Source: Candidatus Cloacimonadales bacterium (GTDB taxonomy: Bacteria > Cloacimonadota > Cloacimonadia > Cloacimonadales > JAFGVF01). Taken from it: 64,000 nt of DNA. Each line of letters starts with the position of its first letter. The stretch's first letter is position 1. The translations under genes were made by a program, and so were the position numbers. Below the pieces are notes generated by a model, which saw only the letters and a program-made list of their open reading frames with translations, had not been told where the DNA came from and made no database searches. The stretch is taken from contig CAXXOU010000002.1 in NCBI GenBank assembly GCA_963677495.2, positions 164,070-228,069 on the forward strand, read 5' to 3'. Below are positions 3,690 to 61,601 of the stretch, in pieces.

Positions 3690-3869
3690 CAAAACGTAGT
3701 CATCCCACTGTTTTCCCACTGTGCAAGCACTGTGCACCCAGTGAAACAGTGGGTTAGCAGTGCCTTCACAGTGCGTGCACAGTGGGAGCACAGTGCGTTG
3801 GTGGATAGAGCAGTAAAAGTGAGTAAAAAGGGCAATAAATATAGCTAAGTTATTGAAAAAGGCACTGTG
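3690..3869 (-). repeat. Family-1 ~180-bp intergenic element, copy A (CACTG/CAGTG motifs phased at 11 bp)
   Basis: The reverse complement aligns along its length with 49647-49826 and 61089-61268. All copies share ...CAATAACTTAGCTA...CCACCAACGCACTG...GCACGCACTGTGAAGGCACTGC.AACCCACTGTTTCACTGGGTGCACAGTGC.TGCACAGTGGGAAAACAGTGGGATGA..CGTTTTG. Confidence 0.85.
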
Positions 3870-3883
3870 TATGTATTCAGAAG

Positions 3884-3988
3884 CGGTCACCATTACGACC
3901 AACGGGAGTTCGGGGAATTGCGACTTAGAAGTACGAAATGTATAAGCTCCGCAATTCCCCAAGCTCGCAAACTCGCACTGGTGACTGC
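3884..3988 (-). repeat. Family-2 ~105-nt double-stem element, copy A
   Basis: The reverse complement aligns with 12921-13028 and 13069-13176. The inner stem is GGGGAATTGCG/CGCAATTCCCC. It overlaps the left half of the 19-bp inverted-repeat element at 3894-4102. Confidence 0.8.
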
Positions 3989-4102
3989 TGCTTTAGCTCG
4001 TGTCCATGAGAGCTTGCGACTTCGACGCAAAGCGAAAGAAGGCAAGCTAATCAGACTTAAGTGGTAAAAATTCAGCTTGGAGTCGAACTCCCGTTGGTCG
4101 TA
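3894..4102. mobile_element. MITE-like element bounded by perfect 19-bp inverted repeats (no transposase)
   Basis: TACGACCAACGGGAGTTCG at 3894-3912 is the exact reverse complement of 4084-4102. The two arms are 171 bp apart. Related arm sequences recur at 12833, 19741, 49546/49607 and 61040. Confidence 0.55.
3993..4064 (+). repeat. Family-3 module (shared with 7680-7751)
   Basis: TTAGCTCGTGTCCATGAGAGCTTGCGACTTCGACGCAAAGCGAAAGAAGGCAAGCTA... aligns at about 80% identity by eye with 7680-7751. It contains an AGCTTGC...GCAAGCT stem. Confidence 0.7.
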
Positions 4103-49000: not shown

Positions 49001-49436
49001 AAGGGAAGAGAAAACCTTGATAAGTCGAGAACTATATAAAGGGTTCTCCGAAGAGTTCTCATTGAAGATTCTGCTTGCAGAAGATAACATTGTAAACCAA
49101 AAGCTAGCTTATCACTTGTTGGGAAAACTTGGTTATTCCATAGATATAGTTGATAATGGTAAGAAAGCACTAGAGCATTGCTTAAAAGAGAAGTATGACG
49201 TTGTGCTTATGGATCTCCAAATGCCTATAATGGATGGTATCACTGCTTCTAAAGAGATCATCGCACGTCTTGATGGTCAAGAAAGACCATATATTATTGC
49301 GCTTACTGCTAATTCTGCTGAACTTAACCGACAGGAATGTCTTGAAGTGGGAATGGATGATTTCATCTCGAAACCTTTTAAAGCGAGAGAACTAAAAGAA
49401 AGATTCGTTAAAGTATACAACGATAAATATATGTAA
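46077..49436 (+). CDS. Hybrid sensor histidine kinase / response regulator (periplasmic sensor, PAS, HisKA, HATPase_c, REC)
   Basis: H-box VSHEIRTPLNG, N-box SNAVKFT, DTGIGIP and GTGLGLA. The C-terminal REC domain reads ILLAEDN...VLMDLQMPIMDG...K. I prefer the ATG at 46077 (GGGGA SD) over the TTG at 46056. Confidence 0.85.
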   Translation: MTKKEKKLANSFQKILIISTILSVAIIFAFRMVWHYSFLKSGLSSTQNSIEKLYQKEVKNYSRYNTQFFDEFLHDIEIQINREIEMFGNTLHSAAISVYRDYNSSLPEHEVKTKIMNTLEQMRDLDIVSSVSIVDTSGTFLMTRGIDGLEGKNLSSYLSHSANRYMLNEFKQFSNTSVTTHKKDSLYLSRFWTVWLHNYRNNIVVSNDSSSVIVPPVVVTDDLKQVNPSYRNMIVEYYINRNELETVLCIQRFAPYQWGIVYEYKTSERWKQILESKRKDAYSLIQGLYEDVKTMSIFIDADTDNHIFLGKSDYWSEKKDLITYIKKSLIDDYKDGKEKEGFFPFRYPYGKLAKNYVCYYQLTENPSGISATIIEEGAKIVSADYLGAMYRKQAVVEVIIIIILLSILLGIVLFWTYQVRRRLEHYVEYICDAFNSYMPGVTPFEIGNIQYWEWQKVADAANRMMMERSRIENELNSERALTEQLFSRNINAVVLINPGGEIQKVNPSFQELFGFDCNEVVGKNIDDLIVPEGMINEATDFTNKAVTIDNISFEARRKHKNGKLLDVQVYTTPVIVNDYVVAIYSIYEDISLKKKAEQHIIKAKEEALAASKAKSSFLATVSHEIRTPLNGIIGMTEVMTNTALNKEQQDYLEIIHNSGDTLLVIINDILDLSKMESGDLDIVKKMFDLDKCLSSCLDVISAEADQKGIETLLVMDSSVPRMISTDEFRLRQVMLNFVSNAVKFTEKGEVKLIVSVVEESEESINLRFEVSDTGIGIPEDKLESIFDTFTQADSTITRRFGGTGLGLAISKKIVRILGSDVHVQSKEGSGTSFIFNLNIEEWERTTTVFDTSRILKGKKALLVDSNRQSQRVIKSYLESYALQPFIANDLISALAILNDDNEFEFCLINNNSNKKNILEFAKNVRKSYSADDLKLILLKSPGSTYKSLSDFQAVLRKPVSLYKLAPAFSEDNREKREEKTLISRELYKGFSEEFSLKILLAEDNIVNQKLAYHLLGKLGYSIDIVDNGKKALEHCLKEKYDVVLMDLQMPIMDGITASKEIIARLDGQERPYIIALTANSAELNRQECLEVGMDDFISKPFKARELKERFVKVYNDKYM

Positions 49437-49457
49437 AAAACGCTTCATTTTGGATAT

Positions 49458-49500
49458 ATAGGATTATGCTACATAGTTGCATAATCCTATTCTTCGTATT
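49458..49500 (+). terminator. Terminator hairpin after the hybrid kinase
   Basis: A 12-bp stem (ATAGGATTATGC / GCATAATCCTAT) is followed by a T-rich tail. Confidence 0.55.
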
Positions 49501-49545
49501 TACACACACAGTGGCGTTTACAATAACTTACATCATTGGAGTCAA

Positions 49546-49621
49546 AGCGACCGAAGGGAGTTGGACTCATAGTGATGTACTTTCGCCATTTTCGCTATCC
49601 GCCCATCTCCCTTCGGTCGCT
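49546..49621. mobile_element. Small inverted-repeat element (perfect 15-bp arms) related to the 3894-4102 element
   Basis: AGCGACCGAAGGGAG (49546-49560) is the exact reverse complement of 49607-49621. The element sits between two copies of the Family-1 5' end (CAGTG...TTTACAATAACTTA at 49507-49530 and 49649-49672). Confidence 0.55.
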
Positions 49622-49646
49622 ATTGCGACAACTTCAGAACAACGTA

Positions 49647-49826
49647 CGCAGTGCAATTTACAATAACTTAGCTATATTTATTGCCCTTTTTACTCCCTTT
49701 TACTGCTCATTCCACCAACGCACTGCGCACGCACTGTGATCCCACTGTGAAGGCACTGCCAACCCACTGTTTCACTGGGTGCACAGTGCGTGCACAGTGG
49801 GAAAACAGTGGGATGATTGCGTTTTG
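49647..49826 (+). repeat. Family-1 ~180-bp element, copy B
   Basis: Aligns with copies A and C. CACTG occurs at 49721, 49732, 49743, 49754 and 49765 (11-bp steps) and at 49773, followed by inverted CAGTG motifs. Confidence 0.85.
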
Positions 49827-50305
49827 TATTATGGATTGCTTCAACTGCAAAGATGGAACTAACTCTCGAATAGAAAAAAGCAGGAATAGACTAATGTAAC
49901 CACTGTAAATCGTTCACCTCTGAGCGATGAATTATACTAAAACTTCTTCAAAACTACCATTCTAATCCCCCGATACGCACTGGAGCAACAGATATATTTA
50001 AAGTAAATCCATCTTTTATCCAACTTATATGTATCCTATATGCTCATAAAGGTTTCATATAAGAGTCATATAGGGAACATATAGGGATTATGTGTCTGTT
50101 ACTCCAGTGCCTAACGTGGAAGTGGAGAGAACAATTCAAAAGAAAGATGTTGAAATAGCACTGTGCACTCCATAACTTAAAACGTAACTATTGTTAAGTA
50201 AATCTATTGTATCATAAAAGGCTGATATATGGGAGAGATAGATTAGTTGACAAATAAGACTCTCTTTACATTATATCGTAAAAAATCTGAGATTTGGGAA
50301 AGTTT

Positions 50306-51559
50306 ATGACAAAAACCTACGAAAATGAGAAGGGCAATCTTAAAATTGATGTGAGTGAAAATGCTATGGAAGCTTATCTTACAATCAAACTTACCCGTGA
50401 TGTAATCAATGAAGAAGAGATTAAAGAGCTTATAAATAAAGCAGGTATCGTATATGGTTTCGATACTGCTGCCGATGAAAATAAGGAAGCCGGCATCGAA
50501 AAGGAGTACGATGTACCATTCCTTATTGCAAAGGGTGGATTAGATCCATTTAAGAGTGAACTTGTTTGCAAGTTTGAAGCGGAAACATGCTATGCTCCAG
50601 GTAAAGATCCATCCAGAGTTTCATTAACCGGATGGTGTTTTGTGGAAGCGGGAACTAAACTAGCAGATATAAAAGTGGATGAGAACTCAAATGCAATAAA
50701 GAATATTCATGGAGTTACATTGGAACAGAGAGATTTACACTCATTATATTCCAGTCAATATATTGATAGAAATGTTACATTTAAAGACTCCGAAAAAGCT
50801 ATCTATTCTACAATAAAAGGATACCCTTACCTGAATAATGACGGGAAAGTTGGTGTTGTAGATGTTCTTGGGCTTACTTCGGAGCAGATTAACGATGCCA
50901 AATACTTACACTTTAAGACTCACGTTGATATAGATGGTCCAATAAAGGATTGCGGATTATTATCAGTAGAAGGCAATGTAACAGTTCATGGGAATGTGGA
51001 TAATTGTGCAATATACGCTACCGGAAGCATCCATGTTGATGGAACTGTGTCAGGTTGCAAACCAATCGGATTGATAAGTCACAGGGATATAACATTTAAT
51101 TCAGGTAGAGCTACTTTCTTTCATGCTAAAAGCACTATTAAACCGGAGCGTCAGGTGATTGATTCTCGTATGGTAGCAGGGGATGCTGTTGTTGGTCCTG
51201 ATAGAACCTTTGAAATAAGTGGTGGTAGCTGTTATGCTGCAAATTATATTAGTGGAGCTTATGCGGGAGACAGATTCAATTCTGCAACAAGAATCGAGAT
51301 AACACAAGATTGTTACCCGCAAATGTTAAAAAACAACTTACAAAAGATAATAGATAATAAGCTATTTGCCCCAGTTATTATAGATGAACTGAAATCGAAC
51401 CTGGATCTCATAAACGAGGATAGTAATTTAGGTGAAAGACTATCTGAGGAGAACGGTATCAGTTTTAAGGGAAAGATATTTCCCGGAGTTGAGCTGGTAG
51501 TAAATGGTAAATTGATTACGATGGATAAAGTAGAGAGTGATGTAGTAATCACTTTCTAA
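50306..51559 (+). CDS. FapA-family (DUF342) protein
   Basis: The N-terminal pattern ...LKIDVSENAMEAYLTI...EEEIKELINKAGIVYGFD and a beta-helix-like repetitive core are typical of DUF342. I prefer the ATG at 50306. Confidence 0.65.
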   Translation: MTKTYENEKGNLKIDVSENAMEAYLTIKLTRDVINEEEIKELINKAGIVYGFDTAADENKEAGIEKEYDVPFLIAKGGLDPFKSELVCKFEAETCYAPGKDPSRVSLTGWCFVEAGTKLADIKVDENSNAIKNIHGVTLEQRDLHSLYSSQYIDRNVTFKDSEKAIYSTIKGYPYLNNDGKVGVVDVLGLTSEQINDAKYLHFKTHVDIDGPIKDCGLLSVEGNVTVHGNVDNCAIYATGSIHVDGTVSGCKPIGLISHRDITFNSGRATFFHAKSTIKPERQVIDSRMVAGDAVVGPDRTFEISGGSCYAANYISGAYAGDRFNSATRIEITQDCYPQMLKNNLQKIIDNKLFAPVIIDELKSNLDLINEDSNLGERLSEENGISFKGKIFPGVELVVNGKLITMDKVESDVVITF

Positions 51560-61088: not shown

Positions 61089-61268
61089 CACAGTGTCTTT
61101 ACCAATAACTTAGCTACATTTTATGCCCTTTTTACTCGCTTTTATTGCACATTCCACCAACGCACTGTGTCTGCACTGTGCACGCACTGTGAAGGCACTG
61201 CCAACCCACTGTTTCACTGGGTGCACAGTGCGTGCACAGTGGGAAAACAGTGGGATGACTGCGTTTTG
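61089..61268 (+). repeat. Family-1 ~180-bp element, copy C
   Basis: CACTG occurs at 61163, 61174, 61185, 61196 and 61207 (11-bp steps) and at 61215. Inverted (C/A)ACAGTG occurs at 61224, 61235 and 61246 (11-bp steps). Confidence 0.85.
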
Positions 61269-61566
61269 ATAAGAAGTTTAATGAAAGTTTGCGATATCGC
61301 AAAAGAGGATGCTAGGATAAGACTTATTAAATGAGATTCGCTATTCTTTAGACTCCCATGGTAGTGTACATAGTATATCTTTGTGGTTTATAATTAAAAG
61401 ATTATAACTCATAGCTTTCTAAGACTTCCCAATTCCATTGTAAATATGTACTAATTCATCATTATCCAATGACAAGAAAAGTGAAAACTAAAACGTGGAA
61501 CAATAAAAATTAGCAGTCTCACTTTTTGTTTGACAAAAATATAAAGTCACATAAATTGTCATTATA

Positions 61567-61593
61567 TTAGCAACCGAAAGATTTGATTGCTGA
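61567..61593. promoter_or_regulatory. CIRCE-like inverted repeat (TTAGCAACC-N9-GATTGCTGA) between the promoter and the hrcA start
   Basis: Each arm matches the CIRCE consensus TTAGCACTC-N9-GAGTGCTAA at 7 of 9 positions, and the N9 spacing is kept. It lies downstream of TTGACA (61530) and just before the GGAG SD. Confidence 0.5.
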
Positions 61594-61601
61594 TTGGAGT
61601 A

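Follow-up and report, generated by a model that had tools for sequence, protein, structure and literature searches.

A genus-restricted 180-bp interspersed repeat of Cloacimonadales with an iteron-like core of words spaced at 11 bp

A 180-bp element, here called K, occurs three times in a 64,000-nt window of a Cloacimonadales genome (C2:164070-228069 of the 3.41-Mb assembly G000, which has 37% G+C and four contigs, C1-C4). K is confined to one genus and is a repeat of the kind represented by MITEs (miniature transposable elements with inverted repeats), hairpin-forming doublets of repetitive extragenic palindromic sequences (REPs; the doublets are termed REPINs) and bacterial interspersed mosaic elements (BIMEs), with an iteron-like core. 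On balance, comparison of the copies leads us to regard K as a non-autonomous fold-back interspersed repeat whose core a sequence-specific protein would read at one word per helical turn, and which would have spread, or become homogenised, in each species on its own. Binding by a protein, mobility and its mechanism are what we infer from the patterns described below.

The original prediction for this stretch placed three copies in the window, described their layout and held that they are non-coding. Alignment confirmed the three copies (A-C, Table 1), which show 87% mean column identity, and direct reading of copy C recovered every word as described: a run of CACTG at 11-bp steps, an offset CACTG and three inverted (C/A)ACAGTG words. 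The pattern of five CACTG words at 11-bp steps has three exact matches in the window (61163-61211, 49721-49769 and, on the minus strand, 3747-3795), the second of which shows that copy B has the same phasing as copy C, and it had no match in 100 dinucleotide-preserving shuffles. All three copies start with CACAGTG or CGCAGTG followed by CAATAACTTAGCTA, and the arms are able to form a long hairpin (DNA fold of -36.2 kcal/mol, z = -3.8). No open reading frame (ORF) of at least 80 aa overlaps copies B or C, and a coding reading was rejected on that ground.

Words 1-3 of the 5' arm in copy C are complete CACTGTG heptamers, and the stem words as a class are CAC(T/A)GTG heptamers, in which "direct" and "inverted" amount to a change of the central base only. 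The constrained core measures ~105 bp. Its first five words, three CACTGTG and two CACTG, follow one another at steps of exactly 11 bp; a sixth CACTG, offset, stands at the tip, and three CACAGTG words in inverted order complete the core. By information content the K unit is longer than 180 bp, with ACATA before its start and a semi-conserved T..A..G.TT pattern that extends it by ~12-20 nt beyond TTTTG.

K is far more abundant than the window suggested. BLAST found 65 full-length copies in G000, not three, at 80-95% identity (the range that also separates copy C from the other 64), and two further copies are split by IS21-like inserts of ~2.4 kb. The 65 copies of 180 bp are situated in gaps between ORF calls. 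In the genome-wide count that the original prediction had proposed, orientation was non-random and the phasing had not decayed, and K does not form part of a longer insertion sequence (IS) that has a transposase of its own. All four genomes of the genus carry K, and the 37 other relatives do not. In a set of 185,579 species genomes, a 24-position K pattern with 19 specified bases matched only OY762964.1, a Cloacimonadales metagenome-assembled genome (G001) whose HrcA is 95% identical to that of G000, and a 26-nt exact K pattern had no match. Full-text searches of the literature turned up no account of these elements for Cloacimonadota.

K forms the last unit of modular tandem arrays. The 24-bp head with which it opens (CACAGTG-N7-CAAYRACTTA) occurs about 127-135 times in G000, each time opening a unit of ~140-180 bp. 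About 65 heads are followed by a K body and the remaining ones by hairpin modules of ~115 bp, which fall into a few recurring types labelled A-E. In most arrays the units are spaced at 138-152 bp. Of 74 arrays, 65 end in K, and no unit ever follows K. The most frequent array types are AK (27) and K alone (15), followed by BK (6), DK (4), CK (3) and EK (3), with DDDK, DDK, AAK, ABK, DAK and EAK each seen once. Copy B closes an array of the BK type (C2:213576) with a unit spacing of 140 bp, and both halves of the type-C module beside copy A match repeats flanking the Y1-transposase gene at C3:76613-77188. Modules A and C match the flanking repeats of the Y1 genes at C2:350304 and C3:76613 and are therefore REPIN-like. 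The arrays do not have the form of CRISPR arrays, as the heads are parted by bodies of 115-155 bp drawn from some six recurring module types, with one to four units per array.

Orientation was scored against flanking genes assigned from a crude ORF map. Of the 65 copies, 50, the three in the window included, point toward a downstream gene of the same direction, and 26 lie between divergent genes. Where the flanking genes are in tandem, K is co-directional with them in 23 cases and opposed in 6 (p = 0.002). K alone of 10 word families compared (see below) is co-oriented with flanking genes, the nine others showing no orientation bias. GC skew tracks the local gene strand and yields no clean replichores, so that a replication-strand bias is not separable from co-orientation with genes. 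The proposal that the element points toward the next gene thus held for the window and for most of the genome, but no specific tie to the ADH, FapA or hrcA genes emerged: K lies 260-420 bp upstream of the hrcA promoter (61530) and the FapA-gene promoter (50247), and the 65 intergenic gaps in which it is found are unrelated. When the 65 K loci were viewed, without systematic tabulation of neighbours, no gene stood out as a conserved neighbour.

The pattern of conservation indicates what is being kept. As predicted, the word cores are conserved and the nucleotides between them vary: within G000 the words, the tip and the entire 3' arm are conserved at 90% or more per column, against just 30-60% for the 3-4 nt linkers of the 5' arm. 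The 3' arm is the best-conserved part of K (consensus frequency of at least 90% per column), and in the predicted hairpin it pairs with words 1-3. Three internal indels among K copies are exactly 11 nt each. Across four species (G000-G003) the word array is kept, and the head and the pyrimidine-rich spacer have strongly diverged; the spacer shows moderate conservation inside the genome and poor conservation across species.

Conservation of pairing was assessed by tallying the consensus hairpin pairs over 89 distinct K copies from the four species. Mismatching cells (416) far outnumber those with one-sided (151) or two-sided (26) compatible changes, and G-U pairs (158) are not favoured over A-C (179). 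In an own-versus-cross duplex test, the tail of the same copy gave the outer stem no pairing advantage over tails taken from elsewhere in the set (p = 0.86). With both the pair counts and the duplex test negative, selection on RNA or single-stranded DNA structure was rejected. The uncompensated linker variation, the exact 11-nt indels and the lack of a G-U preference argue for sequence-specific reading of the words rather than for a conserved RNA or DNA fold. Constraint thus appears to act on the words and on the register of one word per turn, not on base pairing, whether the selection behind it would favour propagation of the element or the host, and neither strand appears to resemble a selected RNA.

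These results bear directly on the idea that K is transcribed into an RNA hairpin, which might serve as an RNase III processing or insulating site, as a protein sponge or as an unconventional terminator ending in UUUUG. The predicted RNA fold is strong (-65 kcal/mol for the plus strand, z = -3.2), the hairpin base AACGCA/UGCGUU stands directly before UUUUG, and the 23:6 co-orientation in tandem contexts would be expected of such a device. However, the minus strand folds equally well (-66 kcal/mol), and the pairs show no compensatory covariation. A scan of the whole window at Rfam gathering scores returned tRNA only and nothing for K, a permissive Rfam scan of 49300-50350 gave only sub-threshold miRNA-hairpin noise, and promoter and terminator consensus scans flagged nothing inside K. 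A canonical terminator, which the original prediction had already disfavoured, is not supported by these scans or by the surroundings of K: just 32 of 64 copies have a co-directional gene upstream, and the copies in divergent gaps would meet no read-through to stop. We consider an RNA hairpin the least probable of the alternatives discussed here.

The most likely reading is that a sequence-specific protein would bind the array cooperatively, one word per turn; it could belong to the apparatus by which K is copied or moved, or be a host factor. K has the form of an iteron array, with fixed units near one helical turn, a conserved core, a variable linker and indels of exactly one unit. The 11-bp format has several precedents: parC of plasmid R1, bound by ParR, has ten 11-bp repeats, the "bind" locus of the pMV158 double-strand origin (dso) has three 11-bp repeats for the HUH protein RepB, and the Streptomyces PHO-box is made of 11-nt direct repeat units. 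Phage contigs L099, L105, L110 and L111 carry 3-6 tandem 11-bp units with a CACTGTG core, presumably iterons and unrelated to K, and such arrays mark the format as a common one for protein-read repeats. A plasmid or phage origin of K was rejected, no plasmid match having been found and the phage arrays being unrelated. The expectation of an iteron-like, protein-binding array with its motifs on one face of the DNA stands in part. Conservation of words, register and indel length is as it would predict, and the 5' arm keeps the 11-bp register, but the words of the 3' arm begin 61 bp (5 x 11 + 6) after the first word of the 5' arm; on duplex DNA the arms thus do not keep a single continuous phase, and the 3' arm, 6 bp out of phase, does not share that face.

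Comparison between species pointed to turnover of K. Each species has its own K consensus, and G001 copies follow the G001-type consensus even at the shared hrcA gap. About five of 21 sampled G001 sites have K beside the orthologous gene in G000, and in at least one of these K is apparently in the opposite orientation. Junctions spanned by K are synteny breaks in 13 of 15 cases versus 11 of 23 for other junctions in the same loci (Fisher p = 0.02). With a species-specific consensus, mostly unshared sites and this coincidence with synteny breaks, K behaves as a non-autonomous mobile repeat. The pattern fits turnover or homogenisation within lineages, and a role in rearrangement, or failing that a siting at rearrangement-tolerant boundaries, would be consistent with it; K may sit in permissive gaps upstream of genes and mark sites of rearrangement.

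A K-less unit at C3:5965 hints at an insertion point. It reads ...GAATGCAT|CTTGATAGATAG (also given as GAATGCAT|CTTGATAGATAGT) and is followed by TTGATAGATAG, the sequence that otherwise comes after K. Units are preceded by (AC)ATA, and C3:5965 is the sole K-less look-alike site. Strain-level empty sites were sought through exact HrcA protein look-ups, which gave no match, and through one metagenome scan, which returned only more distant relatives.

Several observations weigh against the reading of K as a non-autonomous mobile repeat. For K we found neither an autonomous master copy nor a transposase, and neither a terminal target-site duplication nor a clean empty site. G000 has 14 matches to Y1_Tnp (HUH), among them about five paralogues resembling REP-associated tyrosine transposases (RAYTs), and most have their own flanking repeat families (examples are C1:783126-783569, C3:348091-348537, C4:910234-910677, C2:350304-350978 and C3:76613-77188). 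None of the 13 Y1 genes inspected has CACTG words or K on both sides, the Y1 genes that do lie near K belong to three different subfamilies, and Y1 counts over 41 genomes are as high in genera without K and do not track the genus. The cognate RAYT or other enzyme that had been envisaged was therefore not found in the flanks of these genes, in the counts or in the comparison of subfamilies. Two further points on the same side concern the host: co-orientation with genes is not required of a purely selfish element, and the K core is approximately as conserved between species as coding DNA, which would also fit a host function.

The Y1 genes nevertheless raise the alternative that K is a REPIN serviced by a RAYT/IS200-like Y1 (HUH) transposase, with the hairpin recognised as single-stranded DNA at the replication fork. 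Such enzymes and their repeats are plentiful in G000, K arrays are interleaved with the REPIN-like modules A and C, one Y1 gene lies 126 bp downstream of a K copy (C4:1048444), two lie less than 1 kb from K in G001, and gene co-orientation could reflect a strand bias at the fork. This is countered by the lack of any Y1 gene bracketed by K or its words, by the mixture of subfamilies next to K and by the counts, which are equally high in K-free genera and in G004, the one sister-genus genome sampled, where 11-bp arrays are lacking. K also has no short GTAG-type REP with a conserved foot, and the lack of compensatory changes argues against the hairpin as the recognised form. We find this alternative very doubtful.

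Gene co-orientation and the conservation of the core would be accounted for if K were instead a host-domesticated DNA-binding platform, its copies serving as chromosomal iterons for a regulator or a nucleoid-organising protein, with an OmpR/PhoB-type winged-helix or ParR-like ribbon-helix-helix protein reading it upstream of ~65 transcription units and mobility as its origin only. Words and 11-bp register are conserved and pairing is not, as this requires, most copies point toward a downstream gene, and the PHO-box, parC and bind locus are all built of 11-bp repeats. However, K stands 260-420 bp from the hrcA and FapA-gene promoters, which is not operator distance, its sites are mostly unshared between species with one shared gap apparently holding it reversed, and the nine other word families show no orientation bias. 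No candidate protein was found, and the two arms differ in phase. A host platform seems to us unlikely, and we retain the reading of K as a non-autonomous repeat with a protein-read core.

Other classes of element were compared with K by their structure. An autonomous IS is not indicated, as the interrupted copies hold IS21-like inserts with unrelated ends and no half-copies bracket a gene. The core arms are inverted over ~45 nt, and the unit as a whole is asymmetric, with 75 nt of head and spacer on one side only. The arms consist of three heptamers at 11-bp steps rather than the single palindromes of 20-40 nt that characterise REPs.

K proved to be one member of a wider class, which we regard as a more notable result than K itself. 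A whole-genome autocorrelation scan in 66-nt windows found an 11-bp period in 252 regions of G000, 226 of them intergenic and 66 of them K, and every other period within 8-16 gave 0-28 regions. The arrays use at least 10 word families (CCACGG/CCGTGG, CCAAG/CTTGG, TCCCGAG, AGGGAGG, TAACGGG, AGTAAG, ATCAAG, CACGAGAGGGT, CATATA and CACTG), several of which consist of a direct block plus an inverted block. In an unbiased 400-kb sample, G001 had 10 arrays with an 11-bp period, and the sister genus represented by G004 gave one AT-rich chance match. Several word families contain an imperfect palindrome, GTTATNCACA-N3-TGTGNATAAC, each half of which resembles a DnaA box (TTATNCACA), and the form GTTATGCACA-CGA-TGTGGATAAC adjoins several word arrays (C1:231675-231697, C1:284095-284117, L011 at ~105-130 and L041 at ~2100-2125). 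The DnaA-box-like palindrome has 37 occurrences in G000 and 36 in G002, and a comparison of 201 Cloacimonadota genomes showed it in this genus only. These families might form a "word code" of chromosomal iterons, with at least 10 families (~250 arrays per genome) sharing one architecture of words at exactly 11 bp, often a direct block with an inverted one, and differing in the word alone, each read by its own member of a family of DNA-binding proteins that recognise helical repeats, or all by a single structure-reading protein, and serving chromosome organisation, replication control or gene insulation rather than being merely selfish; we hold this quite unlikely. The distribution of K along the chromosome differs from that of the other families in one respect: stretches totalling ~810 kb of G000 (C1:563-986 kb and C3:150-542 kb) are free of K, and other word families occur there. 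Outside them K reaches 16-29 copies per Mb.

Word elements are themselves targets of insertion sequences. The end of the IS21-like elements that split two K copies also adjoins K or modules at C4:359444 and C4:1165774. G000 has six copies of an IS3-family element (OrfA plus DDE OrfB), all at the purine-rich right end of a CCAAG-family element, and in G001 this IS3-family element has its end against the word array of K at four loci (L021, L025, L027 and L028). Its presence at one word family in G000 and at another in G001 suggests that word elements are targeted site-specifically, whatever their word. The elements mark breakpoints and serve as landing pads for IS3- and IS21-family elements, and they therefore shape the genome structure of this uncultured lineage.

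The closest known systems appear to be REP/REPIN/BIME mosaics and MITEs for the life-style of K and 11-bp iteron arrays for its core. Like the REP, REPIN and BIME sequences of Proteobacteria, K is short, non-coding and intergenic, is present in tens of copies, forms hairpin doublets and modular mosaics, is targeted by IS elements and resides in a genome with many repeat-flanked Y1 transposases. IS1397 and ISKpn1 likewise insert in REPs. Unlike a REP, each arm of K repeats one heptamer at strict 11-bp steps in place of an imperfect palindrome of 20-40 nt that bears a GTAG-type tag, K flanks no RAYT, each unit has a 24-bp non-palindromic head, and K is always final in its array. Compared with iteron arrays, K shares a conserved core of ~7 nt with a variable linker of ~4 nt, an exact 11-bp period, tandem units and the primacy of words over pairing. 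Iteron arrays, though, are single loci beside a cognate gene, an origin or a promoter, whereas the 65 copies of K are scattered, their second arm is inverted and 6 bp out of phase, and no cognate protein was found for them.

Bacterial MITEs, including Correia, ERIC, RUP and BrickBuilt, a Porphyromonas element with an internal minisatellite, are among the elements covered in reviews (PMC3184786, PMC4596501). K resembles bacterial MITEs in size class, copy number, intergenic siting, inverted arms, species-specific amplification and association with rearrangement. It differs from them in having neither a parent IS that could be found nor a demonstrated target-site duplication, in its asymmetric ends (head versus tail), in inverted arms made of phased words, and in at least 10 sibling families with a common period and different words. 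If the words are protein-read, these genomes would hold a large natural set of iteron-like arrays, ~250 per genome with at least 10 words and one fixed period; with such a set the reader protein or proteins could be sought directly, and it could be tested how bacterial fold-back repeats spread when no transposase is obvious. Should K be selfish DNA only, it would still provide a well-characterised new repeat family for annotation and strain typing of these Cloacimonadales.

Table 1. Coordinates of K copies, their parts and associated elements (plain numbers are window positions; those prefixed C1-C4 are G000 contig positions)
Feature	Coordinates	Strand	Description
K copy C	61089-61268	+	Head, pyrimidine-rich spacer, word hairpin, tail; = C2:225158-225337
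Head, copy C	61089-61112	+	24 bp, CACAGTGTCTTTACCAATAACTTA; consensus CACAGTG-N7-CAAYRACTTA, ACATA usually just before
Pyrimidine-rich spacer, copy C	61113-61162	+	GCTACATTTTATGCCCTTTTTACTCGC...CCACCAACG
5' arm, copy C	61163-61219	+	CACTG at 61163, 61174, 61185, 61196, 61207 (11-bp steps); offset sixth CACTG at 61215
3' arm, copy C	61224-61252	+	CACAGTG at 61224, 61235; AACAGTG at 61246
Tail, copy C	61253-61282	+	GGATGACTGCGTTTTG plus semi-conserved ATAAGAAGTTTAAT (consensus ATAGATAGTTTA)
Palindrome TTTGCGATATCGCAAA	61288-61303		Inside downstream module (AGAGTTTAATGAAAGTTTGCGATATCGCAAAAG) common to many K copies
K copy B	49647-49826	+	Alignment, census and phasing match
Unit before copy B	49507-49646	+	Head (49507-49530) plus type-B hairpin module (CATCATTGGAGTCAAAGCGACCGAAGGGAG ... 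CTCCCTTCGGTCGCTATTGCGAC)
CATATA-word array	49993-50103		11-bp period; = C2:214062-214172
K copy A	3690-3869	-	Alignment, census and phasing match
Type-C hairpin module, directly upstream of copy A	3870-3992	-	REPIN-like; CAGTCACCAGTGCGAG..CTTGGGGAATTGCG ... CGCAATTCCCCGAACTCCCGTTGGTCGTAATGGTGAC
IS21-split K copies	C1:468344-470890, C4:1304849-1307393		Inserts of ~2.4 kb, IstB-like C-terminus, ends TGTCAATGGCATTTTAAATTGGTACAGT
IS3-family copies, G000	C3:92692-93929, C4:1237849-1239086, C2:234403-235640, C2:141822-143059, C2:359505-360742, C4:221018-222255		

Word repeats also occur around a group of small genes. In the flanks of four IVP (23S-rRNA-IVP, PF05635) genes and one GxxExxY (PF13366) gene of G000, no CACTG words were found. 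The IVP genes at C4:488359 and C4:488797, which are in tandem, and at C4:1489815 have word repeats on both sides, made of other words with periods of ~7-13 nt. Across the IVP/GxxExxY loci (C4:488100-489300, L119; C4:1489500-1490400, L121; C4:777000-777900, L122; C4:902436-903000, L118) the flanks hold TAGCCTACAG/CTATAGGCTA, TGCAAGA/TCTTGCA and CACGAAA hairpins, and a CCAAG-family element lies immediately upstream of the tandem IVP pair. The K-bearing genomes G001-G003 have almost no IVP genes, and none that is intact.

The hrcA leader downstream of copy C (61505-61600) contains a promoter-like TTGACA-16-TAAATT at 61530-61557, followed by an inverted repeat resembling CIRCE (controlling inverted repeat of chaperone expression), TTAGCAACC-N9-GATTGCTGA. 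The promoter-like site is also found upstream of hrcA in L012, L011 and L041, and the CIRCE-like repeat is partly present there. L011 and L041 are other Cloacimonadota contigs, with HrcA 87-88% identical, and their hrcA-upstream gaps (97-216 in L011 and 2008-2130 in L041) hold different 11-bp word arrays, made of GATTCCCG and CCTCCCTAG words.

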